64,000 nucleotides of DNA from the UHGV virus genome UHGV-0277313. One strand, given 5' to 3'. Under the pieces are notes generated by a model that was not told the DNA's origin, did not search any database, and saw only the letters and a program-made list of their open reading frames with translations. Position 1 is the first letter of the stretch. Each line of letters begins with the position of its first letter. The position numbers and the translations under genes are program-made. Source of the DNA: a virus. Positions 13,539 through 38,479 of this stretch are shown here, in pieces.

Positions 13539-13800
13539 TTAAATCAACTCCATCAACAATGTTTGAAACTCTTTTTTGTTCATTTCGCAAATCATCAATA
13601 TATGTATCTTTTATAGTTAAATACTTACCTAAATCAATTAAACGATCCAGACGAACAATAAAGCTATTAACAAAATCGCTCCCTAAATTTGATGCATCAC
13701 ACAATTCGCGAACAAAACCAATTAATTCTTCACGATCTTGAATAAATCTGACCGCCTGATTTTCATCAAAAACTGTTTTATTTTCTTCAGGTGTACTCAT
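13525..13800 (-). CDS. hypothetical protein
   Basis: 91-aa ORF. Confidence 0.4.
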   Translation of the reverse strand: MSTPEENKTVFDENQAVRFIQDREELIGFVRELCDASNLGSDFVNSFIVRLDRLIDLGKYLTIKDTYIDDLRNEQKRVSNIVDGVDLNALD

Positions 13801-14147
13801 GCTTCGTAATCCAAAATTCCTAATTTAAATTCACGTTCAGTGTCTTCATTATCATACCTAATTTTTACAAAATCAAGTAAATTTTTTATCACAATAAAAT
13901 CTGCACTGAACCACTCACCACTTAAATGGTTAAATTTTAGATAGCGATGCATGATCGACTCCAGAATTTTTGCAGGAGCTTCTTCAATTTCTACACAATA
14001 TTCAAGTGACAATTTCTTTGGGTTACCTGTCTGAAGTTGTCTGACCCTTCTTTTTGGATCCTTTGACAACCCTACTTTAAAAGCTTCACCATTCGAAATC
14101 ACATAAATAAAACTACTCATTTCTAAAATATTTAAATAACATTTCAT
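13797..14147 (-). CDS. T5orf172 / GIY-YIG-superfamily domain protein
   Basis: YVISNGEAFKVGLSKDPKRRVRQLQTGNP matches the T5orf172 (GIY-YIG-like) signature. Confidence 0.5.
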   Translation of the reverse strand: MKCYLNILEMSSFIYVISNGEAFKVGLSKDPKRRVRQLQTGNPKKLSLEYCVEIEEAPAKILESIMHRYLKFNHLSGEWFSADFIVIKNLLDFVKIRYDNEDTEREFKLGILDYEA

Positions 14148-14173
14148 AACCTGCGATTAGAAAAATCAAATTT

Positions 14174-17100
14174 TTAGATTTCAATTACTTCCTGTTTCTT
14201 CGAGTCATAAACAAAACTATCTTCAGCTTTAACCTCTTGTGTTTTAGCCTCAATATATGGAAACTCTACAGGAGTTGCATCTAAATATGCATTATTAACA
14301 GCACCTACGCAATTGTGTACAAACACATTACAATCCAATGCAAAATTATGAATTGAATTTAATACAATATCATATACAGGTTTTGTATTTTCAATTTTTG
14401 TAATCTGTGTAACATACACATGTAAATTTTCAACTTTAGATTTCTGTTCTGCTAATTTATCACCTAAATCGTGTTTTAGCAAATATCGTCTATATCCTTC
14501 TGGATTTACTTGCTTCATTAACGCTAACCCTTCGTTAATGATTTTTGTTCTAGCCCGTTTCATAACAGTACGATCATGAAAAGCTTTAATTTCACGACCA
14601 GTCATTGCATGTAAATTTGTATGTTCAATATTTGTTAAAGGGACCAAATTTTCAGGTCTATCATCATTTTTATTATGTGACTTGTGATGAATAACTGTAA
14701 ATTTACTACCATCAATTACAGCACGTTTTTTTGCTTCTGCAATAGCGTTTGACAATAAGTCTTGAGAAACAATTTTATATAAAAATTTCGGCGTTCCTTT
14801 AAATGGATTAACAACTTTTCTATATCTATCATGATAGTTTAATTCATGATAATAATTAAAAGGCATTAACTCATCATACAGAGCAATATCTTCTGCCTGT
14901 TTATATTCACCGCTTTTCATTAGAATTAAATGATCATCAGTACATGCAAAGGTTTTTCCGTTGCTTAAAGTAAACTGCAACAAAGTTTCAGGAATATGTT
15001 TTTCTAACACACGTTCAATCTTAACAGGCTTTAACTGTTTTGATTCACAATCACATGCTAAAACCCATTCATGCTCAATATCAGAATTGTATAACTCTTC
15101 TATTGTTAAAACTTTTCCAGACAATAAAAAGATTTTTGTATCGTAAGCCAAACAACTATCAGCCATATCTTTTTTGTGCGTTGTTACTAGTTTTTTATCT
15201 GCAACACCAATATAACCTAATTGTTCACGCAAATATGGGCAATCACCAACTTTAATACGTCCTGTAATCATCCACTGTGCAAAATTTAAATATGCCGTAA
15301 TATCACGATCTACTGATTGATAACGTACGTTCTCAAATTCATGATGCTGCTGTAATGATTGTCTTACATATTCAGAATTGTGAACGAACACACCAGCCGA
15401 TAATGCGAAATTTGGAGCTTTATCTATACTAATATCATACACATCTTCATATTCGTCTAGAAATTCAATATATTTGACTTTATGATTAATTCTATGCTTT
15501 TTGAACCACTCTTCACGATATTTAGTCTTTTCTTTGTTGATAGTTTCTAACGAAACAGTTTTTTTATAATTTTTTCCAAACAATTTTATTAAATGACCTC
15601 TAGAGCCAGGATATCTCACTTTCATTTTCGCAACATATTCTGGATTTTCCCATTTTAATAAATTTGCTTTTGTTATATTCTGTAATGCAATATCTGATGT
15701 TTTACTACCTAATCTCGGTTTTCTTGTTTTATTTAAAATTTTAATTCTTTCAGATTGCTCTTTAGCTCTTTTGCAATCATCTTTTTTAAACGATTTTTTT
15801 GTACAATCAATCATCTCTTGTTTATATTTTTTTGCAACTAATTTCCCAGATTCACTTTGACACTTCCTTGCATATGCTGATTTATTTTTATCTGCATAAA
15901 ATTTTTCTTTTATTTTCTTGCATTTGATAGATCTCTTCTTTCTGGCTTCTTCTGTTTGAGATTTTTCTACAACCCTATTCCAAACAGTTGGATCTAATCT
16001 TAATAATTCTTGAAAATGCTCAACATGCACTTTCAAATGTTCATCTTTTGTTAACAATACTAAATTGTTTGGATTATTATTTAATTTATTAAAATCTTTA
16101 TGGTGTATGTGAAAGCCTTTAGTTGACCCATATAAACTATTTGCTATTTTTCCATAAGTTAACCCCCAACTATTTGTTAAAGGGTTTAATACATTTTCAT
16201 AACCTTTATCAGAATATTTCCTATATAAAGGCATCAATGAATCACCACAATTTAAATATTGTGCCTGAATAAAATCACCATTCCTTAACATAAAACGATG
16301 ATCTAATGTGCATCTTATTTCTTCATCATTATCTAACACAACTTTCATAATGCGTTTTTTGCCATTATTTTTAGCATTAATAATTCGTCCAGGAACAACT
16401 TTTTTTGTTTTCAGGTCTAACGTATATGTAAACAACTCCTCGCCACTATTGAATCTTTCTAAAATATCTTTAAAAGAAACTTCCTCACCATTTAATAATG
16501 ATACTTTTGTATCACCTGTGAAACATTGAAACTGATCATACGAAATTGTCTTAATATACACACCTGCTTTATCACGCAAATCCAATGATAATTGTTTAAT
16601 AGCATCATGATCAATTCGGTTTGGCGCTGAAATCCATGATACAAAATCAGCCACAAAAACAGTTTGATGTTCTCCTAAATCATTAACAACATACTCTTTA
16701 TGCCATAACGAATATCCTGCTTGTGACGTTGACTGTGAAGCTAGATCAACGTGAACGAACCTCGGTGCATTTGGATACCTTGCTAAACGTGGTCCTAAAG
16801 TTGTTTCTTGAAATAATTCTTTTGGCAACTTATCAAGTAAAGGTATCTGATCACCTAAAGGCGCTTCTAAATGAACCTCTGGTAATAATTGTTTACAATC
16901 ACCGATACGTGACAAATCGTCAAAAGGTCTATCAGATGTATCTGTCGTTCTACCAGCAATGTTTTGAATAGCCGCTTCAATATTATTTTCAAACTCACGT
17001 CTATACTCAATAGGAACTTCTAATAATTCACAACCTGCAGGTGGTACATAATTTAGTTTTTCTAAAGGTACATCATTATATTCTTCAGGCAACACTTTTG

Positions 17101-17521
17101 ACGGGTGTGTTTTAGTACCAATATAAATCCAAAAATGTTTACCTGATAATCCTAAAGCATCACCCTTAACTTCCCAAATAGCTGGATCTAACAATAATGT
17201 TTCTGGATCGTCAGGTTTGATTTTATGTATATATTCCCAAACCATTCCTGATTTTGATTTAGATGATGAAATCAACGCACAATAAATTAATGATGAATTT
17301 AAAAAACGTGATCTAATACGTTCGCGTAAACCTGTATAAAGTTTAAACGCTTCAGATGAATCCTTCTCTTCAGCTTCGTCAAAAATTGAGTTACATGTTA
17401 CAACTCCAGACGATAATAGATAATTGTGCAAATCATTATTTACTTCTAAATTATATACTTTTACAGGTTGTTCAAGTTTTTTAGTTTTTATGGAATTAAT
17501 CTTCATAAGTAAAACTTTCAT
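14174..17521 (-). CDS. terL: terminase large subunit, C-terminal precursor fragment: split-intein C-half (Int-C) + Walker B + nuclease domain, interrupted by two HNH-type inteins
   Basis: Starts with DnaE-Int-C-like 44 aa (VYNLEVNNDLHNYLLSSGVVTCN then S); extein SIFDEAEE (Walker B) continues the upstream fragment's ...IGYSVFG, aligning with T4 gp17 RGNSFAMIYIDECAF; RFVHVDLASQ nuclease motif; two full inteins with TxxH and HNF...HN blocks. Confidence 0.8.
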   Translation of the reverse strand: MKVLLMKINSIKTKKLEQPVKVYNLEVNNDLHNYLLSSGVVTCNSIFDEAEEKDSSEAFKLYTGLRERIRSRFLNSSLIYCALISSSKSKSGMVWEYIHKIKPDDPETLLLDPAIWEVKGDALGLSGKHFWIYIGTKTHPSKVLPEEYNDVPLEKLNYVPPAGCELLEVPIEYRREFENNIEAAIQNIAGRTTDTSDRPFDDLSRIGDCKQLLPEVHLEAPLGDQIPLLDKLPKELFQETTLGPRLARYPNAPRFVHVDLASQSTSQAGYSLWHKEYVVNDLGEHQTVFVADFVSWISAPNRIDHDAIKQLSLDLRDKAGVYIKTISYDQFQCFTGDTKVSLLNGEEVSFKDILERFNSGEELFTYTLDLKTKKVVPGRIINAKNNGKKRIMKVVLDNDEEIRCTLDHRFMLRNGDFIQAQYLNCGDSLMPLYRKYSDKGYENVLNPLTNSWGLTYGKIANSLYGSTKGFHIHHKDFNKLNNNPNNLVLLTKDEHLKVHVEHFQELLRLDPTVWNRVVEKSQTEEARKKRSIKCKKIKEKFYADKNKSAYARKCQSESGKLVAKKYKQEMIDCTKKSFKKDDCKRAKEQSERIKILNKTRKPRLGSKTSDIALQNITKANLLKWENPEYVAKMKVRYPGSRGHLIKLFGKNYKKTVSLETINKEKTKYREEWFKKHRINHKVKYIEFLDEYEDVYDISIDKAPNFALSAGVFVHNSEYVRQSLQQHHEFENVRYQSVDRDITAYLNFAQWMITGRIKVGDCPYLREQLGYIGVADKKLVTTHKKDMADSCLAYDTKIFLLSGKVLTIEELYNSDIEHEWVLACDCESKQLKPVKIERVLEKHIPETLLQFTLSNGKTFACTDDHLILMKSGEYKQAEDIALYDELMPFNYYHELNYHDRYRKVVNPFKGTPKFLYKIVSQDLLSNAIAEAKKRAVIDGSKFTVIHHKSHNKNDDRPENLVPLTNIEHTNLHAMTGREIKAFHDRTVMKRARTKIINEGLALMKQVNPEGYRRYLLKHDLGDKLAEQKSKVENLHVYVTQITKIENTKPVYDIVLNSIHNFALDCNVFVHNCVGAVNNAYLDATPVEFPYIEAKTQEVKAEDSFVYDSKKQEVIEI
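14312..15154 (-). mobile_element. intein 5 of terminase (281 aa, HNH-type endonuclease domain)
   Basis: CLAYDTKIF...TDDH...VIHHKSHNKNDDRPENL...HNFALDCNVFVHN followed by +1 Cys. Confidence 0.75.
15377..16525 (-). mobile_element. intein 4 of terminase (383 aa, HNH-type endonuclease domain)
   Basis: CFTGDTKV...CTLDHRF...HIHHKDFNKLNNNPNNL...NFALSAGVFVHN followed by +1 Ser. Confidence 0.75.
17390..17521 (-). mobile_element. split-intein C-terminal half (Int-C, 44 aa) of terminase intein 3
   Basis: MKVLLMKINSIKTKKLEQPVKVYNLEVNNDLHNYLLSSGVVTCN closely resembles Npu DnaE Int-C (MIKIATRKYLGKQNVYDIGVERDHNFALKNGFIASN). Confidence 0.75.
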
Positions 17522-18458
17522 TGAAAATCAAATTAATTGTACTAACAAACTTAGATACTGAACCAAATTTTTTAATTAAACTATCCCACAAAGGCAAAGA
17601 TCTTTTGTTTTTATCCGAAAGATTTCTTGCTTTCTGATATGACAACTTGTTGACAACATTACCTTCAATTAATTTAACAACATTATAATATCTAGCTAAC
17701 GTAGCTAACTCTTGTTTTTCTCTTGCTCTTTCTGGATACAATTTATTAAACTCTTGCGTATTTTTTGAATGCAATTTTCGTGTAGAATCTGTAATTACCC
17801 TGTTTTTATTTGAATTAACAACTACATCGTGATGCCTTTGTGATGAATTAAATTTTCTCATCAATTCTCTTCCATGTTCTATACAATGCATCTTTCCTTC
17901 CTCTGAACGTAAATACTGTTTCATTCTTTTTGATGCACTTTCTCTACCCTCTATACTTTTGCTATAAGGTATTAAAACTTTTTTAACACGTTCTGCTCTT
18001 CTTTTTATAAACTCTTTATCGTTATTAATCTTGTTTAAATTATTTCTTGCACAAGATTTCATATATTCTGAAGACATCAGATCTTTCATTCTATTTCTAG
18101 CCCTATTCTTTGCTTCGACAGTTCTAGAATATTCAACAAGATGTTTTGCAGTATTTAGCAATTTTGCTGAATCACTTGATAAACCTTTCCCACCTTCAAC
18201 TAAATTATAACATTTATCATCATTTACAGTGTTACTATTAACAAGTACGCGTTCAAAGTTAAATGCATCTTTCTCTGAATCAAAAAAACGTAAAATTTTT
18301 AATTGAAAATTTTCTTTTCCATATTTTTTTATGGCTTTTTTTATTAAAACGCCAGAACCTAAATACCTATCATTAAGGTTATTTGTTGCATGTTTTCCAT
18401 AATAAAATTTACCGTTTATTAAATTAGTTATTTTATAAACAAAAATAAATTTACTCAT
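17496..18458 (-). CDS. free-standing GIY-YIG homing endonuclease located between the two halves of the terminase split intein
   Basis: N-terminus FIFVYKITNLINGKFYYGKH...NDRYLGSG is a canonical GIY-YIG motif; first ATG is 2 nt after upstream stop (track start 18470 is GTG); 3' end overlaps Int-C ORF start by 26 nt. Confidence 0.8.
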   Translation of the reverse strand: MSKFIFVYKITNLINGKFYYGKHATNNLNDRYLGSGVLIKKAIKKYGKENFQLKILRFFDSEKDAFNFERVLVNSNTVNDDKCYNLVEGGKGLSSDSAKLLNTAKHLVEYSRTVEAKNRARNRMKDLMSSEYMKSCARNNLNKINNDKEFIKRRAERVKKVLIPYSKSIEGRESASKRMKQYLRSEEGKMHCIEHGRELMRKFNSSQRHHDVVVNSNKNRVITDSTRKLHSKNTQEFNKLYPERAREKQELATLARYYNVVKLIEGNVVNKLSYQKARNLSDKNKRSLPLWDSLIKKFGSVSKFVSTINLIFNESFTYED

Positions 18459-18459
18459 A

Positions 18460-21213
18460 TTACATAACACCTAACAATTCGTCTTGATCAGTTAAATCTT
18501 TTGCATGCTTGCACCATTGATTATTATACATTATTAAAGTTTTATCAATTCCTATCTTTGGGTTTTTTATAGGGAATTTATGATCTGGCGTGCATCTTAT
18601 GCTCTGTCCGTTTTCCAACTCTATTTCAACTAACTCATTTACTTCTTTAGTACATTCACAATTATTAATATTATTCCAAGTAAACGTCCCATCAAGTTCT
18701 CTAGTTTTTACTTTATATTGATTACAACTTTTTGCAATATCTTCTATTCTTATATTTCCACTATCTGTTACAACTTCTGTATCACCTGTTAAACAACCAA
18801 AGACACTGTAACCAATAATGTGATTAATATTTGAACCTACCGACAAGTATACATTGTTTGGAAACCTAATGCCATTGCCTTGACGACAGAATGGAACCGG
18901 ATCATTTGGCCCAAACGAATCGAAAGCCGTCATTTTACGAACTTCATGAAAACATGGCGAATTACGAATCATTTCCAATACAGGCTTTAATGCAGTATCC
19001 TGCGCTTGCTGCAATGTAACAGAAATCATCAATGCAGATAAAACAGTATCAGGTGCAATATTGAATAATTTATGAGGCGATCTTAAACAACATATACGAT
19101 AAAGTGCATAAATTAAACCTCTACGCGCAATAGTTGATTTTCCTGAATTGTGTAAAATAATTAAATTTCCTGAATCCGTTACTACAGCAAAATTGTGATA
19201 AACAGGGACTTCTATATCATAGACCGCACATTTTTTATCAAGATCCTGCACATTTTTAACAGTAACACTACCATTATTTGCACACAATATATCATTCTTT
19301 TTTAAATCTTTCGCTTCAACATAATGACCTGAACTCAATAGAAATCTATGATCGCTCGTACATTCTAACGTTGTTCCGTCAGATAAACTAACACTTAATA
19401 CCTTTCTATTCTTTCCAGTACAACGCGCATTAAAAGCTTTTGCTTTTACAAATACATTATTTTTAATGTCATACGATAAAACATTAAATTCATTATCTTC
19501 ACCTAAACTTGCTAAATTTTCAATGGACACTAGTTTGTTATCAGACAATATTTTTGTATCACCAGACAAACAACCAATACTTCCACGAAAAACACAATTA
19601 GAAGCATATACCCCACTGTTAATTGCAAAATTATGATTGCCACGAATACAAACGTTGAAAGTGGATTCGCTTTTTTCTAACAATTTTATACTAACAATTT
19701 TATGATTATATTTGATTTCAACTTTTGTGTTAATATCAAACTTATTGCACCAGGCCTTTAAAGTCTTTACTTTAATACAAGCATTACTTGCACATTCCTC
19801 TATAGTATAACCACAACTTAATATATACCTAACTTCTTCTTCAGTCACCTTTTTTAATAAATCTTTATGATTGATATTATAAAGTTTTAACTTATTGATG
19901 ATATAACATCTGGAACAATTTAATTTCCTTTCAACTTCTCTTAATGAAAAACTATTTTTTAAAGTTTCAATAAAACGCTCCTTTGATATATCTAACCTTG
20001 CTGAAGGATTATTTTTTAAGTTTTTTTCTCTTTGTTTTATTCTTAAATTTTCTTTTAATAATGCACCTTTTTCGCTATTCCAAAAAGCAACAGAAATTTT
20101 GGAAGCATAATTATCTTGCAAATTCCTCAATGACATACGTTTTGAAGCCAACTTATGTTGTTGTTCGTCTGCCCACCTGTTTGCTGAACCTTTTTTTAGT
20201 CTATTTTTTACAGAATCAACAACTTCTTTGACACCATTCTTATAAGCTTCGTTATACAATTTTAATTGTTTTCTTGCGAATTTTGTATGATAATCTAGAT
20301 GTGTCTTACTATCTAAATAAATTAAATTAGTTGGATTGTTATTGTATTTGTTACCATCTTTATGGTGTATGACTTCATAACGTACCCTTTCACCTCTATT
20401 CTTTACAGGTGCTTTATATTTTCTGCCATATTTCCACAATGCACTTAAACGATGTGTGTATTCTGAACTTGCAACAGAAATTTTTGAAGGTATGATTACT
20501 TTTTCATATGATTTCACACCTCTTGCAGTTTTGTCTTCAACAAACCTCTCAAAAGGCATTAATGAATCACCGACTTTTAAATCCTTTGTCAATACCCACT
20601 TATTATTTCTATTCAAAAATTTATGATTTTCAGTACACTTAAAAACTTTTCCATTATCTAAAGTTATTTCATAAACTCTCTTTTCACCACTATATTGAAT
20701 ACCTTCTATTTCACCGGGTTCGACAGAATGTTTTTGTTCGTTCCACGTGTATACATAACAACCTTCATAACCAAATAAACATAAATCTGCTACAGTTTTT
20801 ACAGAACCATCCATTAATGGAATTTCTACATCACCAGTAACACATTCAAAATATTGATTAGATGGATCAAATATTTTTGCTAAAATCTGTCGCCAATAAG
20901 GATAAATAATGGCATACGAATTGCCCATATATGCATCATCTTTCAAGAATTCTTGAATAGTTGGCATATGTTTTTTATAAAGCAAAACATCAAGCTGATT
21001 TAAAAACTGTTCCTGCCCTGTATAATACAAATAGAAACCCATTCTTTTTTCAAAATCAGGCAACTGTTCTAAACGTGAACCACGGGGAATTTGTTCTGAA
21101 TAAAACGAATAAATATCATTAAATTCTTTTGAATGTATCAAGTTAATAATGTTATCTTGATCTTCAACTGAATATACAGGAATTTGATAATTATTGTGTA
21201 AAATCTCAACCAT
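18460..21213 (-). CDS. terL: terminase large subunit, N-terminal precursor fragment: ATPase Walker A region interrupted by two inteins, ending in split-intein N-half (Int-N)
   Basis: Exteins YFE / CVFRGSIG / SGKSTIARRG...IIGYSVFG give P-loop GSIGSGKST and an ATPase domain aligning with T4 gp17; three Hint N-terminal blocks (CVTGDVEIP, CLSGDTKIL, CLTGDTEVV) with TxxH blocks. Confidence 0.8.
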   Translation of the reverse strand: MVEILHNNYQIPVYSVEDQDNIINLIHSKEFNDIYSFYSEQIPRGSRLEQLPDFEKRMGFYLYYTGQEQFLNQLDVLLYKKHMPTIQEFLKDDAYMGNSYAIIYPYWRQILAKIFDPSNQYFECVTGDVEIPLMDGSVKTVADLCLFGYEGCYVYTWNEQKHSVEPGEIEGIQYSGEKRVYEITLDNGKVFKCTENHKFLNRNNKWVLTKDLKVGDSLMPFERFVEDKTARGVKSYEKVIIPSKISVASSEYTHRLSALWKYGRKYKAPVKNRGERVRYEVIHHKDGNKYNNNPTNLIYLDSKTHLDYHTKFARKQLKLYNEAYKNGVKEVVDSVKNRLKKGSANRWADEQQHKLASKRMSLRNLQDNYASKISVAFWNSEKGALLKENLRIKQREKNLKNNPSARLDISKERFIETLKNSFSLREVERKLNCSRCYIINKLKLYNINHKDLLKKVTEEEVRYILSCGYTIEECASNACIKVKTLKAWCNKFDINTKVEIKYNHKIVSIKLLEKSESTFNVCIRGNHNFAINSGVYASNCVFRGSIGCLSGDTKILSDNKLVSIENLASLGEDNEFNVLSYDIKNNVFVKAKAFNARCTGKNRKVLSVSLSDGTTLECTSDHRFLLSSGHYVEAKDLKKNDILCANNGSVTVKNVQDLDKKCAVYDIEVPVYHNFAVVTDSGNLIILHNSGKSTIARRGLIYALYRICCLRSPHKLFNIAPDTVLSALMISVTLQQAQDTALKPVLEMIRNSPCFHEVRKMTAFDSFGPNDPVPFCRQGNGIRFPNNVYLSVGSNINHIIGYSVFGCLTGDTEVVTDSGNIRIEDIAKSCNQYKVKTRELDGTFTWNNINNCECTKEVNELVEIELENGQSIRCTPDHKFPIKNPKIGIDKTLIMYNNQWCKHAKDLTDQDELLGVM
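18463..18795 (-). mobile_element. split-intein N-terminal half (Int-N, 111 aa) of terminase intein 3
   Basis: CLTGDTEVV...IRCTPDHKF... ends at ORF stop without C-terminal HN block; complementary Int-C begins the next terL fragment. Confidence 0.75.
19147..19572 (-). mobile_element. intein 2 of terminase (142-aa mini-intein, no endonuclease domain)
   Basis: CLSGDTKIL...LECTSDHRF...VYHNFAVVTDSGNLIILHN then +1 Ser of SGKST. Confidence 0.75.
19597..20844 (-). mobile_element. intein 1 of terminase (416 aa, HNH-type endonuclease domain)
   Basis: CVTGDVEIP...FKCTENHKF...VIHHKDGNKYNNNPTNL...GNHNFAINSGVYASN then +1 Cys; codon positions checked against sequence. Confidence 0.75.
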
Positions 21214-21242
21214 TAGAAACCTATTAGAAAATTTTTAATGAA

Positions 21243-21962
21243 TTACTCTTCGTTCAATTTCTTCTTTTCTTCTGCTTTTATTTCATGAAAAGTTGCATCT
21301 AACATAGTTGCAATCTTTTCAGTTCCAGTTTGTATTTTTTCTTCTGGCTTGTATTCAACCTGACTTTGTCTTGGAACACCTATTTGACCCCAAACACCTG
21401 CCGCTTCCGCCATTTTAGTCATGCTGCTGACTGTTTTAGGTTCAAGTGATTTCATTACATTTTCATTATTACTATAAACATTTTGTTGTTGATTCAATTG
21501 ATTTTCAACATGATTATCATAAACATTATGTGTTGGACCTTGCATGTTGATATTGATACCACCGGACCGTGCGCCAAAAATTCTATCTAAATCAGCAACA
21601 CCTGCTTCATTAATAGCTCGATACATGTCAGTTAACTCTGCGGGCGTGCAAGAAACCATTACTTCATTAAAACGTGACAACAAATTTCGTTTCATATCTT
21701 CTGCAATCAACCCGTTTTGAAAACGATAATTCAAATATGTCTGCGAAATAAAATCAGTCATATTTTTTAAAGTTGATGCACTTTCTTTAGAATTGATCTC
21801 TTTTAAAGCATTTGCAAAATTTATTACTGACTTAAAAATTCCTAATGTATGTTTATTGCTTTCATCACGATTATAATCATCAGCACTAATCATACCTGAT
21901 GACCCACACCCTTTTACAGGAACCATATCTTCTTCAAAATCGTCATTGTAGTAATTGGCCAT
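21243..21962 (-). CDS. hypothetical protein; possible terminase small subunit by position (immediately upstream of terL)
   Basis: 239-aa ORF; position and weak resemblance of ELTDMYRAINEAG to T4 gp16 C-terminal region only. Confidence 0.3.
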   Translation of the reverse strand: MANYYNDDFEEDMVPVKGCGSSGMISADDYNRDESNKHTLGIFKSVINFANALKEINSKESASTLKNMTDFISQTYLNYRFQNGLIAEDMKRNLLSRFNEVMVSCTPAELTDMYRAINEAGVADLDRIFGARSGGININMQGPTHNVYDNHVENQLNQQQNVYSNNENVMKSLEPKTVSSMTKMAEAAGVWGQIGVPRQSQVEYKPEEKIQTGTEKIATMLDATFHEIKAEEKKKLNEE

Positions 21963-34536: not shown

Positions 34537-35408
34537 TATTTAACACCATTAGCAGCTTTTTTCATTTCCTTAACGTCATACGGCTCACATTCTTTCACTT
34601 GATTAGCCGCTTTATCAAAGTTTACATACACAGTTGTATTTGTTTTACCACGACGGGCTTTAGCAACATATAATCTCATTTTACCATTGTCAGACTCTTC
34701 ACGAGTTTGGTTTAATGTAACAATGCCATATGCCACATGCGCTTTTCTTGATGAATCAGCTAACATGTCTTGCGATGCCACTTCATTGTCTTCAGTGTTC
34801 CATGCAGCCTTTCCTAACTGTGAACCTGTAACAACAGGACAATTAAATTGGTCAGCTAACGCCTTCAAGTCATAAAAAATTGTACCCATTTCTTCATATG
34901 TACTTTCAGATGACCGTCGCGTTTGTTTGTTCGGTAACATTAAATCTGCATAGTCTACAATAATTAAACCAGGTTCAAAATTTTCCAAAGAATGTAACTT
35001 CGTCAAATATGTTCTCAAATGATTAGCAGATACTGTTTTATTAGAATAATAAATAGTCCTTACATTAGGTGCCCAATATTTAATTTTCTGCACACGCTGT
35101 TTGTATTTTTCAATTTGTGATTCATCCAATAAATCTCTCATTGACATACCAGTTGAACAGGAAATGATATTTGATAACACTTCCTTTTCAGACCACTCAA
35201 ACGAAAAATACACAACCGGGCGTCTCTGAAACATTGCCTGATATGCCAAAAAGCTCAAGAACTTACTTTTTCCACGACCAGGCGCTCCGCAGTTTTTACT
35301 GTAAAAACAATGACTTAGCTCGAAGTTGTGATACTTATTATTCACCGTCAAATTGTAAACAGGCACCTTTTCATCAAGGTGAATGCGTTTTTTATTTACT
35401 AATTTCAT
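34536..35408 (-). CDS. gp41/DnaB-like replicative helicase, C-terminal fragment (split-intein Int-C + RecA-like ATPase domain)
   Basis: MKLVNKKRIHLDEKVPVYNLTVNNKYHNFELSHCFYSKN (Int-C) then CGAPGRGKSKF (Walker A) and DnaB-like ATPase fold; ATG at 35408 with AAGGAAG RBS (track start 35411 is TTG). Confidence 0.8.
   Translation of the reverse strand: MKLVNKKRIHLDEKVPVYNLTVNNKYHNFELSHCFYSKNCGAPGRGKSKFLSFLAYQAMFQRRPVVYFSFEWSEKEVLSNIISCSTGMSMRDLLDESQIEKYKQRVQKIKYWAPNVRTIYYSNKTVSANHLRTYLTKLHSLENFEPGLIIVDYADLMLPNKQTRRSSESTYEEMGTIFYDLKALADQFNCPVVTGSQLGKAAWNTEDNEVASQDMLADSSRKAHVAYGIVTLNQTREESDNGKMRLYVAKARRGKTNTTVYVNFDKAANQVKECEPYDVKEMKKAANGVK
35292..35408 (-). mobile_element. split-intein C-half (Int-C, 39 aa) of helicase
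   Basis: DnaE-Int-C-like sequence ending ...HCFYSKN followed by +1 Cys. Confidence 0.75.
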
Positions 35409-35518
35409 CAATTACTTCCTTACTTAAACCCAACTTCAGAACATAATCCAAATCGTTTTTGTATAAAAACTTCAGTGATGTTATCACAAAATCAGACAGT
35501 TCGTCAACCTTTAATGTT

Positions 35519-36475
35519 TTAAAATTCATCATCTTCCGACAAATCTTCCGCTTTTTTATATGCAACACCTTCTGACCATATAACTTTTTCATCACCTTTT
35601 TTTGGATTTGTAATTCTAAATTTATGATCAGGTGTACATTTAATTGTATACCCATTATCAAAAGTTAATTCGATCAATTCGTCTGTATCTCTAGTTTTCC
35701 ATACATTATAAATATCAGTTTCGAAAGAGTTTCCATTCTCATCAACTGAATAGGCTTTTTTATCTTTAAAGTTGTTTACCAAATCTTTGATTTCGATGAA
35801 ACCTTTATTTGTTTTCACTTTTGTATCACCTGTTAAACAGAATACATACAGTTCACCTTTTGCAATGCCGCCACCAAAAGCGTCATCTAATGAAGGAATG
35901 CCTGTTGTGAACATATTATCTTTGCCATAACTGTCACGTAACATTTGAGGTAATTCATCAAGTGAACTAACCAAATCTAACCCAAGATTTGTTCCTGCAC
36001 CAACAGACAATGCATCATCGATAATAGATACGGCTTTTTCGTAATCATTTGTTTTATCATACATATCGACCAATTTACCAATTGCATCACGCATTGCAAC
36101 GCTTTTAGCAAAATCTAAAGCTTGATCTTTTATGTACTGTGCGTCTTCAATAACAGTTGTTGTTAAGCTACGAATCACTGAAGCAAAATTTTCTTGTTCG
36201 ACAATAGGAATTGCATATTTACTCGTATAATTATTCAATTCAGTCAACAAAACAGATTCAGTCGGTTTTGTATGATACTGTTCGTAATATGAAATAATCC
36301 ACTGACAAATATTTTGCAAATAGACATTATCAAAAAAAGAAGGTTTAATTAATTCCACGCCAACTGTTGATAAATAGGTGAAATCTTGAAATAATAATGC
36401 AACAATCTTTTTCTGCATTTCAACTTCAAAATTATATGTTGTATCCTGTACAACTTCTTCGTTTTCATTGTCCAT
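35519..36475 (-). CDS. gp41/DnaB-like replicative helicase, N-terminal fragment (DnaB N-domain + split-intein Int-N)
   Basis: DnaB N-terminal-like domain; ...GGGIAKGELYVF then CLTGDTKVKT...IKCTPDHKF... to stop. Confidence 0.8.
   Translation of the reverse strand: MDNENEEVVQDTTYNFEVEMQKKIVALLFQDFTYLSTVGVELIKPSFFDNVYLQNICQWIISYYEQYHTKPTESVLLTELNNYTSKYAIPIVEQENFASVIRSLTTTVIEDAQYIKDQALDFAKSVAMRDAIGKLVDMYDKTNDYEKAVSIIDDALSVGAGTNLGLDLVSSLDELPQMLRDSYGKDNMFTTGIPSLDDAFGGGIAKGELYVFCLTGDTKVKTNKGFIEIKDLVNNFKDKKAYSVDENGNSFETDIYNVWKTRDTDELIELTFDNGYTIKCTPDHKFRITNPKKGDEKVIWSEGVAYKKAEDLSEDDEF
35522..35839 (-). mobile_element. split-intein N-half (Int-N, 106 aa) of helicase
   Basis: CLTGDTKVKTNKGFIEIKDL...TIKCTPDHKFRI...; Cys codon position verified (aca at 35837-35839 on + strand). 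Confidence 0.75.
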
Positions 36476-36514: not shown

Positions 36515-38479
36515 TCAACCTATTCTCGATTCACCCATTTTTTTAATCAACATTTTAAATTGTTCTTCATTTATTTCTGGAATTCCTTCGTTTTCTAGAT
36601 GTTGTTTCCTTTCTCTAGTCCAAGACTCAAGATATGGATGTCCTTTGTCATTAAAATCTACAAACACTGAACAGTTCAATCCTTTATCTTTTCTTCTGGT
36701 TACGCGGCCGATTCTTTGAACATGTGAAATAATATTTTTTCCAGCATCCATCAAGATACCAACATCAAATTCAGGAACATCAATACCTTCATTAAAAACA
36801 ACGTTTCCAACAATTACACGATATCCTTCTTCACGAATTGCCTTTTTAATTGTTTCAGCATTTCCCTTGCGTTCGACAACAACATGTTGAACAATACCTT
36901 TTTTTGTTTTTTCAGTCGCGTCAATAGCTTCATAAATCGTATTACCACCACACATAAATAAAGCTTTAATTCCTTTATCCTTCATTTCACGTACTATTGC
37001 TTTTCCATGTTCAATACGATTAACCATAACCAAAATTTTTAAATTATTCTTGTAACAAAATTCAATACAACGATATGCTGCTTCATTCCTATTAAAACTT
37101 TCTGCAACATATTTCTTATATACATCTGTGCAAGATTTACAAAACACAAATGATTTTGGTGCATAATTAATATAATATGAATAAACTAAAGACGAATATC
37201 CTTTATCACGAAGATACTTTGATGAAATATAATAAAACGAATTACCAAACAACGCTTTTAAAACAATATCATCAACACATTGCCCACCTTCTTTAAAAGG
37301 CGATGCTGTAAACCCAATTAAATATTCAGGATTCGCAACCATTGCGGGTATTGCAATGCTCTGACAGCTGCCGTGATGACATTCATCAACTATAATAGCT
37401 CTTACACTTTTCAGATATCTCATAATTTTTGGATCGTTACGTTTCACCATATTCCAAACTAAATTATTAGTTGAAACAATAATATCTGAATTATCCAAAA
37501 CAGGGTTTCTGTTAAGATATTCAATTTTACGGTCAATACCACGAAGTTTAGCACGACCTTCAATTTGATTTAAAATATTTGTTCGATTATTAATAACTAA
37601 AATTTTCCCATCAATTAATTTAAACAAAGATGCAATGATTTCAGTTTTACCAGAATTATGTACAATCACACCGTTGCTTAATGCAAAATTATGCAAATCA
37701 CAATCAACCTCAATATCATATACAGGAATAGGGTCTACATAATGTTCAGCAAATACTTGCTCAACAACACGACTCCCATAAACACCAGCTACAGGTGATT
37801 CAGCTAAAAGATTGATAGCTTCTACATATTTTCCATTACTTAAAAGGAAAAGATGATCGGGCGTGCATTCAACTTTAACACCATCATTAAATTTAATCTT
37901 CAATGTATCTTTAACATATTTTGACAAATGTGCCGAAACAATTGAATGAAACTTTCCATCTGAACAAAAAACAGACTTTCCATTAAAATTCATACTTAAT
38001 GAACTTAAAGTTTCAAAACCAGTATTTGTTAAAATTAAAGTATCGCCAACAAAACAACCTGTCGCAGCTTCACAGATACCATGTTTATTAATCAAACATT
38101 TTAAAGTACCAATCAATTGATGTTCACGTACTTCAAAACCAGGTGAAGCTAGTGCCATTTCATTATACGCTTGCCTAACCTTTTGCATTGTTGACTTTAC
38201 ATCAATATCAATTACTTTACGCTGATCGATTACAGTTTCAAAATGAAAATACGGTAAAATCAAATCATCAACACAACCTGATTGTACATATAAAGAAGTT
38301 TTTGTATTTTCAACTTCCATATACAATGTAATCAAACTCTGCCCATCAGCTGACAGTAATGTCAAACGTTTTTTTATACGGTTAATAAAATCAGCATCTT
38401 CATCTGAAATTAAAGACCACATCGATTTCGTAATCGTTAACATTTTATTTCTCTCAATTAGACTGTGTTTGAAAAACAA
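36515..38479 (-). CDS. SF2 (DEAD/DEAH-like) DNA helicase with a mini-intein inside the Walker A motif
   Basis: Extein ...KHGICEAATG / SGKTEIIASL (AxxGSGKT); DECHH motif II; helicase C-terminal motifs (TASPFKEGG, HRIGRVTRR). Confidence 0.7.
   Translation of the reverse strand: MFFKHSLIERNKMLTITKSMWSLISDEDADFINRIKKRLTLLSADGQSLITLYMEVENTKTSLYVQSGCVDDLILPYFHFETVIDQRKVIDIDVKSTMQKVRQAYNEMALASPGFEVREHQLIGTLKCLINKHGICEAATGCFVGDTLILTNTGFETLSSLSMNFNGKSVFCSDGKFHSIVSAHLSKYVKDTLKIKFNDGVKVECTPDHLFLLSNGKYVEAINLLAESPVAGVYGSRVVEQVFAEHYVDPIPVYDIEVDCDLHNFALSNGVIVHNSGKTEIIASLFKLIDGKILVINNRTNILNQIEGRAKLRGIDRKIEYLNRNPVLDNSDIIVSTNNLVWNMVKRNDPKIMRYLKSVRAIIVDECHHGSCQSIAIPAMVANPEYLIGFTASPFKEGGQCVDDIVLKALFGNSFYYISSKYLRDKGYSSLVYSYYINYAPKSFVFCKSCTDVYKKYVAESFNRNEAAYRCIEFCYKNNLKILVMVNRIEHGKAIVREMKDKGIKALFMCGGNTIYEAIDATEKTKKGIVQHVVVERKGNAETIKKAIREEGYRVIVGNVVFNEGIDVPEFDVGILMDAGKNIISHVQRIGRVTRRKDKGLNCSVFVDFNDKGHPYLESWTRERKQHLENEGIPEINEEQFKMLIKKMGESRIG
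37655..38056 (-). mobile_element. mini-intein (134 aa) in SF2 helicase P-loop
   Basis: CFVGDTLIL...VECTPDHLF...VYDIEVDCDLHNFALSNGVIVHN then +1 Ser. Confidence 0.75.

Follow-up and report, generated by a model that had tools for sequence, protein, structure and literature searches.

The sequence under study (referred to as the window) is a 64,000 nt stretch of the virus genome UHGV-0277313. An ORF on its minus strand (18460-21213) codes for a protein of 917 aa, the N-terminal part of the large terminase subunit (TerL); all further features of terL are on the same strand. The N-extein (20845-21213, residues 1-123, ending with NQYFE) is followed by intein 1 (19597-20844, 416 aa, C124 to N539), a class-1 intein which contains an HNH endonuclease and ends with VYASN|C. 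Next come an extein of eight residues, CVFRGSIG (19573-19596, residues 540-547), which comprises strand beta-1 and the first half of Walker A, and intein 2 (19147-19572, 142 aa, C548 to N689), a mini-intein without endonuclease which ends with ILHN|S and is inserted at GSIG|SGKST. The first residue after intein 2 is S690 (S690-GKST), and it opens the third extein (18796-19146, SGKST to YSVFG), which extends from the second half of Walker A up to Walker B. A sequence-only reading had placed two inteins eight residues apart at 19147-20844, in the order VYASN, CVFRGSIG, and the Cys which starts intein 2. The translation agrees with this, and the coordinates are exact, as 20844 opens intein 1 and 19147 closes intein 2.

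A split intein interrupts terL at Walker B (VFG|SIFDEAEE). Its N-terminal half (18463-18795, 111 aa) and its C-terminal half (17390-17521, 44 aa, ending with VVTCN|S) flank a free-standing gene for a GIY-YIG homing endonuclease (17496-18470; Pfam GIY-YIG, 3.4e-5, and also SegE_GIY-YIG). A contiguous version of this intein is present in proteins P0002, P0016, and P0046, and the fractured form is found in the window and in P0017; the contiguous form coexists with it within one phage population. Intein 4 (15377-16525, 383 aa, HNH, site DQFQ|SEY) has a mini version without HNH in P0005 and P0006, and intein 5 (14312-15154, 281 aa, HNH, site MADS|CVG) is carried by almost all close alleles. The rest of TerL (span 14177-17389) is encoded by exteins interleaved with inteins 4 and 5 (16526-17389, 15155-15376, and 14177-14311). 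When all exteins are joined in silico, the spliced TerL has 655 aa. For gut 'Jug' jumbo phages, the splitting of terL has been ascribed to group I introns (PMC12880540). Rfam returned no group I introns in the whole window at the gathering threshold and none at E<=1 over 14000-21400, so that we rejected them as the source of terL fragmentation.

The host protein has an N-terminal ASCE ATPase and a C-terminal RNase-H-like nuclease, as well as similarity to known TerLs, and contains both Walker A (GSIGSGKST) and Walker B (FDEAEE). It matches PHROG_2 (TerL, 2.8e-7) and is 38-40% identical to proteins from Pseudomonas phage QdP_Psa3 (unannotated) and Xanthomonas phage phiXF1 (terminase large subunit). 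The TerL fold was established via a model of the homologue P0019, which matches the TerL structures of HK97 (6z6d, E=5e-15), D6E, T4 gp17, and Sf6. No terminase family was matched in the local Pfam-A copy, and the spliced TerL had no match among PDB sequences with phmmer or in a profile search. The precomputed annotation of the protein collection assigns family PF27249 (MJ0330_N).

Excision of exactly the two inteins restores the sequence FECVFRGSIGSGKST, which is uninterrupted in the natural alleles P0001, P0005, and P0002 (98-100% identical). The doubly spliced product, which in silico spans the junction peptide ...NQYFECVFRGSIGSGKSTIAR, aligns gap-free with nine intein-free homologues, the mature-sequence alignment having been named beforehand as a check. 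Judged from these alignments, the exact restoration of the host sequence is far beyond chance. All nine intein-free TerLs have G133 and K134, and conservation reaches at least 90% for E123, G128, I130, and G131. Intein 2 sits within Walker A (GSIG|SGKS), and the site of intein 1 (E123|C124), when mapped onto the P0019 model, corresponds to the first residue of strand beta-1. The GxxxxGK[ST] motif is therefore joined from two exteins. It had been proposed that the inteins bracket the P-loop and that Walker A is stitched from three exteins; both statements have to be corrected, as only intein 2 is inside the motif and intein 1 lies outside it.

Both inteins give essentially full-length matches to Pfam Intein_splicing (intein 1, E=1.1e-13, profile positions 2-150 of 155; intein 2, E=3e-17, plus PT-HINT, 2.3e-8). 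The full class-1 set is found in intein 2: Cys1 (CLSGDT...), TxxH (ECTSDHRF), the block-F Asp (VYDIEV), and the terminal IILHN|S690. For intein 1, the blocks A, B, F, and G can be aligned with those of its relatives. It has the block A nucleophile C124 (CVTGDVEIPL), a block B TxxH (KCTENHKF, aligned with TSNH, TPNH, and SAEH in relatives), a terminal Asn, and a +1 Cys (VYASN539|C540), the latter being native to empty alleles (FECVFRG). The penultimate His is replaced by Ser538 and the block-F Asp by Asn (FNVCI). Among the relatives of intein 1, Lys is found at the penultimate position in P0033 and P0039, and Asn or Ser in block F of P0039 and P0037. Class 1 inteins often have a penultimate His and a block-F Asp but do not require them, and inteins without a penultimate His are documented to splice. 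Splicing activity of intein 1 may be reduced or conditional. Its HNH_3 endonuclease motif (20314-20460, residues 252-300, HHKDGNKYNNNPTNL...H..YH) scores 26.2 bits against the Pfam cut-off of 24.8, and the catalytic His, Asn, and His (HHKD...NNNPTN...H..YH) are conserved with relatives; intein 1 carries a predicted endonuclease.

Nothing but the physical adjacency of the two inteins speaks for a single composite or nested intein (an alternative raised in the sequence-only reading), in which a 566-residue insert (C124 to N689) splices as a unit. Such splicing would remove CVFRGSIG including the near-invariant G128, I130, and G131, but empty alleles read FECVFRGSIGSGKST and intein 2 occurs alone, with the same eight upstream residues, in many alleles. 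A complete Intein_splicing match is obtained for either part, and either has blocks A, B, F, and G as well as a +1 nucleophile of its own. The AF2 model of the precursor has two separate beta-rich HINT domains connected by a linker with pLDDT <50, the HINT domain of intein 1 being modelled at pLDDT 86-95. With this model, every top PDB match obtained by Foldseek is an intein (1mi8, E=2e-8, TM 0.82; TM up to 0.84), the match table assigning these matches to neither HINT domain in particular. We consider a composite intein extremely improbable, and the earlier distinction of two inteins is upheld.

Related DNA was gathered through exact-protein look-ups; no match was obtained when 14000-21300 was compared with the phage collection by megablast, and the exact junction pattern had no match in IMG/VR. 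The natural alleles, which are 98-100% identical in DNA, are empty (L005, L009, L010), carry only intein 2 (L002, L003, L004, L006, L007, L014), or carry both inteins (the window, L011, L012, L013). Intein 2 alone is also found in proteins P0003, P0004, P0007, and P0017, which retain the same eight residues upstream. A separate look at the occupancy of each site, as the sequence-only reading had proposed, revealed no intein-1-only allele among those examined, a modest and phylogenetically non-independent sample. The N-extein matches that of the window over 369/369 nt in L002-L007 and L009 and over 367/369 nt in L010. Identity of the middle extein is 24/24 nt in all intein-2 alleles examined, and that of intein 2 is 425/426 nt in L002-L007. 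Relative to L002/3/4/6/7, intein 1 adds 1248 bp as a clean insertion.

As the data are metagenomic, an assembly chimera or a frameshift artefact might be suspected. We give practically no weight to this, because the identical 917-aa protein is encoded on 15 contigs (up to ~0.3 Mb) from human and pig gut, which are represented in ENA and Logan and stem from independent assemblers and samples. The gene DNA of L001 is identical to that of the window (2754/2754 nt).

At the insertion site, empty alleles read ...GAATGTGTTTTCAGAGGTTCGATCGGATCAGGA... and intein-2 alleles read ...GAATGTGTTTTTCGTGGAAGTATTGGT|TGTTTG.... Intein 2 is linked to a synonymously recoded tract of 16 nt just upstream, which corresponds to the last 16 nt of the middle extein. 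In a first sister pair, 9/24 nt differ, all of them synonymous, compared to 2/720 in the flanks (p=4e-13). A second sister pair (L015 vs. L008) behaves in the same way, with 6/24 compared to 30/720 (p=6e-4). We infer co-conversion of the tract with intein 2; alternatively, the tract could reflect selection of empty alleles which resist the endonuclease. Intein 1, in turn, is linked to at least three haplotypes of intein 2 plus N-extein, two of which also exist without intein 1. Across three haplotypes, it is present or absent independently of markers 60-400 nt away, a pattern which would be expected from homing but equally from recombination.

Sequence variation differs between the two inteins. 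There are 3-4 synonymous and 0 nonsynonymous differences in intein 2, compared to 7-8 synonymous and 5-6 nonsynonymous differences in intein 1 (dN/dS ~0.25, a rough value from our own arithmetic). The higher nonsynonymous variation, together with the non-canonical VYASN and FNVCI motifs, could indicate that intein 1, which has neither the penultimate His nor the block-F Asp, is splicing-dead, and that a dead or dying terL hitch-hikes or is complemented by another gene. We regard this as unlikely. At least four distinct double-intein haplotypes were recovered from different samples of human and pig gut (contigs of up to 313 kb), all with intact reading frames and with conservation of the catalytic C1, TxxH, the terminal Asn, and the +1 Cys. 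The rough dN/dS value is ~0.25, the changes are mostly outside the splicing blocks, and relatives with a penultimate Lys exist. TerL is essential for tailed phages. Going by conservation, the essential role of terL, and the persistence of the alleles within the population, both inteins probably splice.

Intein 1 and intein 2 share 27% sequence identity over 97 aa. The closest relatives of intein 2 are found at the same site (site b) of other TerLs (55% identity in P0018, 41% in P0087, 40% in P0109), and these same-site relatives include forms of 330 aa, which leaves enough room for an endonuclease domain. Intein 1 is ~30% identical to the inteins at the G|SIG site of P0031-33. According to these relationships, the two inteins belong to different site-specific lineages. 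A tandem duplication of one intein was rejected in view of the 27% identity and because each of the two is nearer to inteins in other proteins. The allele series, the clean insertion of intein 1, the linkage of the recoded tract, and the distinct lineages argue for sequential, independent invasion. An independent acquisition at adjacent positions had been postulated from the window; the empty and intein-2-only alleles, the 1248-bp insertion, the several haplotypes, and the low identity bear this out.

The pair might instead have arrived jointly in one co-homing cassette, in which the HNH endonuclease encoded within intein 1 mobilized mini-intein 2. With the sites spaced by 24 bp, a double-strand break at site a of an empty allele could hardly be repaired without co-conversion of intein 2; for neighbors which lack an endonuclease, co-homing has been discussed (PMC10643990). 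However, intein-2-only alleles are common and share their haplotypes, in the flanks as well as in intein 2, with the double alleles, and intein 1 is found in three intein-2 haplotypes. In addition, the divergent lineage P0018/L008 lacks intein 1 but has an intein 2 with 55% identity, and the relatives of intein 2 at this site include the endonuclease-sized forms. While the two inteins may co-home at present, a joint arrival as the origin of the pair is very unlikely.

We thus consider it likely, with a probability of about 85%, that two unrelated class-1 inteins were acquired successively, first intein 2 and then intein 1, at sites of a jumbo-phage TerL which are separated by 8 codons within the ATPase core. 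The order is deduced from the lack of intein-1-only alleles in the modest, non-independent sample. Intein 2, from a lineage which is specific for G|SGK[ST] in Walker A, would have arrived first, and ~16 nt of co-converted, recoded upstream extein DNA would have come in along with it. Intein 1, with its intact HNH motif, would then have entered intein-2 alleles by a clean insertion between E123 and Cys124, which is native, and would have spread among several intein-2 haplotypes by homing or gene conversion. After translation, both HINT domains are predicted to fold and splice separately, so that CVFRGSIG would be ligated at both ends (...YFE-CVFRGSIG-SGKST...). Folding of the ATPase and ATP binding would have to await removal of both inteins.

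A more tentative extension, which we consider rather doubtful, is a sequential facilitated invasion. The recoded tract, which is 9-24 nt downstream of site a, would be part of the recognition sequence of the intein 1 HNH endonuclease, and intein 1 would therefore home only into intein-2-bearing alleles. This would account for its occurrence in three intein-2 haplotypes and its absence from the many alleles without intein 2. A first selfish element would then prepare the ground for a second; the reverse, interference, has been reported for neighboring MCM inteins. Irrespective of this, the naturally occurring alleles (empty, intein 2, both), the recoded tract, and the haplotypes make it possible to test at a distance of 24 bp whether neighbors help or hinder each other in homing.

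Inteins in the P-loop of terminases and genes with multiple inteins are already known; here, the sites which are occupied simultaneously are only 8 residues apart (6 in relatives). Double occupancy was parsed in the top 150 of 7002 TerL family members (from domain coordinates and by manual junction parsing), and among these the TerL clusters P0129, P0137, and P0180 have two inteins around the six-residue extein S[IL]G[WY]GK, at sites G|S and K|T. The eight-residue spacing is therefore not unique, and to count this extein among the shortest conceivable went too far. As in the window, these are two inteins of the P-loop segment with a very short middle extein in a PF27249-type TerL, but their Walker A is truly assembled from three exteins. 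Both inteins have ~400 aa and at least one of the two carries a LAGLIDADG domain; from their size, probably both do.

The spacings of 8 and 6 residues are far tighter than those cited in the searchable literature, with inteins 85 aa apart in Tko PolB and 48 aa apart in Pab CDC21 (Beyer et al., 2022, PMC8966425). These are likewise natural proteins which need both of two inteins to splice, but their middle exteins have 48-85 residues, while the peptide of 8 residues has no fold of its own. This implies that a HINT domain would be able to splice with a short unfolded extein tethered to a second, unspliced intein. Tandem splicing at 8 residues would have a bearing on extein dependence and on the engineering of orthogonal tandem inteins.

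In mycobacteriophage TerL, inteins are also found in Walker A, with the sites of TerL1-a and TerL1-b being one residue apart, several insertion points within a few residues, and active homing endonucleases in some of the inteins (Kelley et al., 2016, PMC5050341). In the accessible part of that report, the neighboring sites are given as separate and no doubly occupied allele is described, whereas here two sites eight residues apart are occupied simultaneously. The TerL families there are Terminase_1 and Terminase_6 rather than PF27249, and the E|C site at the start of beta-1 is absent from the sites described there (PMC5050341).

The haloarchaeal inteins MCM-a and MCM-d likewise share the ATPase domain of a single gene, with one of the two located in Walker A, and their doubles form by invasion of singly invaded alleles and not by co-homing (Turgeman-Grott et al., 2023, PMC10643990). 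This stepwise model agrees with the alleles and haplotypes of terL. Both MCM inteins are of the LAGLIDADG type and their host is an archaeal chromosome, whereas an HNH intein and a mini-intein are combined here in a phage. With a spacing of only 24 bp, the homing site of one intein would have to overlap the DNA introduced with the other. Finally, split intein halves which flank a GIY-YIG gene in one locus have been described, with phage terminase among the hosts (Dassa et al., 2009, PMC2677866). The order of N-half, GIY-YIG gene, and C-half matches that of the third intein of this terL, but here contiguous (P0002, P0046) and fractured (window, P0017) forms coexist.

The ORF at 18460..21213 (minus strand, as are all features of the window listed here) codes for a protein of 917 aa, which carries two inteins. 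The N-extein (residues 1-123, ending in NQYFE) is followed by intein 1 (C124 to N539, ending in VYASN; 416 aa; 19597..20844), by the middle extein CVFRGSIG (residues 540-547; 19573..19596), by intein 2 (C548 to N689, ending in IILHN; 142 aa; 19147..19572), and by a further extein starting at S690 (SGKSTIARRG). Translation confirmed that the coordinates initially assigned to the pair (19147-20844) are exact. When each intein was compared with Pfam on its own, intein 1 matched Intein_splicing (E=1.1e-13, profile positions 2-150 of 155) and HNH_3 (26.2 bits, with a cut-off of 24.8), while intein 2 matched Intein_splicing (3e-17) and PT-HINT (2.3e-8). Cys1, the block-B TxxH, the terminal Asn, and the +1 nucleophile (C540 for intein 1, S690 for intein 2) are common to both. 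All motifs of intein 2 are canonical; intein 1 has Ser in place of the penultimate His and Asn in place of the block-F Asp, positions which are also variable in its aligned relatives. Both are ordinary inteins of known classes.

The gene for the terminase large subunit (terL) extends past this ORF, whose final segment encodes the N-half of a split intein located at Walker B (VFG/SIFDEAEE; here and below, a slash marks the junction). Next comes a free-standing GIY-YIG gene (17496..18470), and the ORF at 14174..17521 opens with the corresponding C-half and encodes two further HNH inteins. Removal of all five inteins in silico results in a 655-aa protein, which matches PHROG_2 ("terminase large subunit") at 2.8e-7 and shows 38-40% identity over 85-91% of its length to an unannotated ORF from Pseudomonas phage QdP_Psa3 and to the annotated terminase large subunit of Xanthomonas phage phiXF1. 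The spliced protein has no sequence match in the local Pfam-A copy or in PDB. The AlphaFold model of its intein-free homologue P0019 (pLDDT 77) matches solved large terminases (HK97 6z6d with E=5e-15, then D6E, T4 gp17, and Sf6 gp2).

The terL gene (14174..21213) carries five inteins (at sites a and b, the split one at Walker B, and at sites d and e); the highest number per gene that we know of is four (Trichodesmium RIR1, Haloquadratum MCM). A sixth intein site occurs in the population (APRF/C...SN/CHVDLAS; TerL proteins P0015, P0021, P0065), and P0065 is a single ORF of 1998 aa with five inteins. The Walker B region (17390..18795) is a "fractured gene" in which the GIY-YIG gene lies between the split-intein halves and overlaps both neighbours. 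Near-identical phages (P0002, P0016, P0046) have contiguous mini-intein forms, so that both gene-breaking stages of Dassa et al. 2009 (PMC2677866) coexist in one population. Intein 4 (15377..16525) is a full HNH intein of 383 aa in the window. In P0005, P0006, and P0046 it is a mini-intein of ~140 aa with the endonuclease cleanly deleted (...LMPLYRK/SIKVKYIEF...), and in P0008-P0012 the site is occupied by a different intein.

The residues equivalent to E-C-V-F form strand beta-1 in the P0019 model, and the helix begins at the Walker A Lys. The insertion point of intein 1 (site a, E/C) is thus, according to this model, at the first residue of beta-1, and that of intein 2 (site b, GSIG/SGKS) is inside Walker A, two residues ahead of GK. 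With these positions, the two inteins do not bracket the P-loop, as the sequence-only reading had it, and the Walker A motif itself is assembled from two exteins rather than three. The spliced sequence FECVFRGSIGSGKST is found uninterrupted in natural alleles with 98-100% identity (P0001, P0002, P0005, P0006). The mature sequence aligns without gaps to nine intein-free TerLs; in this alignment G133 and K134 never vary, and conservation is at least 90% at E123, G128, I130, and G131. A single composite intein was considered as an alternative to two adjacent ones; this fails because splicing as one unit would remove the conserved residues G128, I130, and G131.

The exact 917-aa protein is encoded on 15 contigs from human and pig gut metagenomes (the longest being 277-313 kb). 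Among related phages, alleles with neither intein, with intein 2 alone, and with both were all found. Compared with the window, the intein-2-only alleles L002, L003, L004, L006, and L007 show no difference in the N-extein (369/369 nt) or the middle extein (24/24 nt) and a single one in intein 2 (425/426 nt). Given these identical flanks, the 1248 bp of intein 1 are cleanly inserted between GAA and TGT. Empty alleles are likewise close to the window in the N-extein (369/369 nt for L005 and L009, 367/369 for L010) and downstream (348-349/351 nt). Their codons for CVFRGSIG differ at nine of the 24 nt, all synonymously and all within the last 16 nt (TGTGTTTTCAGAGGTTCGATCGGA vs TGTGTTTTTCGTGGAAGTATTGGT). 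This recoded tract (19573..19588) is directly upstream of intein 2. The 9/24 differences in the middle extein compare with 2/720 in the flanks (Fisher p=4e-13), and the recoding separates every intein-2-bearing allele from every empty allele compared. Downstream of the insertion site, no comparable recoding was found in the same alleles. A second, more distant sister pair shows the same pattern (6/24 vs 30/720, p=6e-4): L015, which is devoid of intein 2, and L008, with an intein 2 that is 55% identical to that of the window.

We read the recoded tract as a co-conversion tract brought in with intein 2. Endonucleases which cut at a distance from the insertion site are known, and the tract may span the interval between the insertion site and the point at which an ancestral endonuclease cut. 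Because the recoding is one-sided, it suggests that this endonuclease cut upstream of the insertion point. Alternatively, the differences could have arisen by selection for endonuclease resistance in the empty alleles. A testable hypothesis would be that DNA which came with intein 2 shapes the homing site of intein 1.

That the two inteins are independent, the core of the sequence-only reading, is supported by their separate lineages and by the occupancy series. They share 27% identity over 97 aa. The closest relatives of intein 2 are at the same site (G/[ST]GK) of other TerLs (P0018 55%, P0087 41%, P0109 40%, P0119 35%), and some of these, at ~330 aa, have room for an endonuclease domain. The closest relatives of intein 1 are ~30% identical and are inserted five residues further downstream (TG/SIGxGK; P0031-34, P0036); the intein of P0035 is one residue downstream of site a. 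In the haplotype table, intein 1 occurs in three distinct backgrounds of intein 2 plus N-extein (the window, like L002; L013 from pig gut, encoding P0174, like L014; L011 and L012 as a third type), two of which also occur without intein 1. Both inteins are present in five protein variants, intein 2 only in ~11, and neither in at least 12, while intein 1 without intein 2 was not encountered among the alleles counted. In the simplest history, intein 2 would have entered an empty terL allele first, and intein 1 would then have spread by homing or gene conversion among intein-2-bearing alleles.

Four DNA haplotypes from different samples have intact reading frames and intact catalytic residues. 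Intein 2 shows 3-4 synonymous and no nonsynonymous differences; intein 1 shows 7-8 synonymous and 5-6 nonsynonymous ones (rough dN/dS 0.25), mostly outside the splicing blocks. TerL is essential in tailed phages. The intact frames, the substitution pattern, and the essential host protein argue in favour of the predicted splicing of both inteins. A model of residues 104-720 has two separate HINT domains (pLDDT 86-95 for intein 1, 62-83 for intein 2) connected by a linker with pLDDT <50, and its best PDB matches are inteins throughout.

The window has a G+C content of 31%, with no tRNAs and no Rfam matches over its entire length. An SF2 (ResIII/DEAD) helicase (ORF 36515..38479) carries a 134-aa mini-intein (37655..38056) at ATG/SGKT, the same Walker A position as TerL intein 2. 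Because it is the closest to intein 2 among the window's other inteins (36% identity over 146 aa), its sequence hints at a P-loop-to-P-loop transfer within the genome. A DnaB-like helicase is encoded in two ORFs via a split intein (35292..35411 and 35522..35839) at YVF/CGAPGRGKS, just ahead of Walker A. Its halves show 40-45% identity to the TerL split intein; there is no endonuclease gene in the 107-bp gap and no intron at the split (Rfam). A small ORF directly downstream of terL (13797..14147) has T5orf172/MUG113 domains in the precomputed annotation of the identical contig L001, and may be another nuclease-like mobile gene. In the related phage contig L010 (4608..5255), its place downstream of terL is taken by genes for a resolvase and for an OrfB_IS605/Cas12f-like TnpB.

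Terminase P-loop inteins are known, with alternative sites one residue apart (PMC5050341), and clustering of inteins in P-loops has been described, DnaB sites being two residues apart (PMC4760082). Neighbouring inteins in general have already been treated (PMC10643990), and the spacings quoted for co-occupied sites are 85 aa (Tko PolB) and 48 aa (Pab CDC21; PMC8966425). Searching the literature by phrase for inteins that are adjacent, in tandem, double, or closely spaced returned nothing nearer. An exhaustive profile search (E<=1e-3) resulted in 7002 TerL representatives. Among the best 150 of these, ~36 have an intein within the P-loop segment of 13 residues, in which five positions are used (E/x, F/x, G5/x, G8/x, K/[ST]), and four have two at once. 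One of them, P0174, has the window's pair in a background without inteins 3 and 4. The other three (P0129, P0137, P0180) are distant TerLs with inteins of ~400 aa each at Walker A G/S and K/T, separated by the six-residue middle extein S[IL]G[WY]GK; Pfam finds LAGLIDADG domains in this region, its table giving them for the region rather than for each intein separately. P0129, with 2204 aa, carries four inteins in all. The six-residue cases indicate that eight residues, at first considered among the shortest conceivable, are not the minimum, and that P-loop double occupancy recurs in the TerL family. The arrangement of inteins 1 and 2 is a new, extreme variant of a known multi-intein condition, and the natural allele series that accompanies it is unusually informative.

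The source of the window resembles the "Jug" jumbo gut phages, in which terL is reported to be split by group I introns (PMC12880540), whereas here it is split by inteins. For haloarchaeal MCM, a route to doubly occupied alleles via already invaded ones has been proposed (PMC10643990), as would be the case here for inteins 1 and 2.
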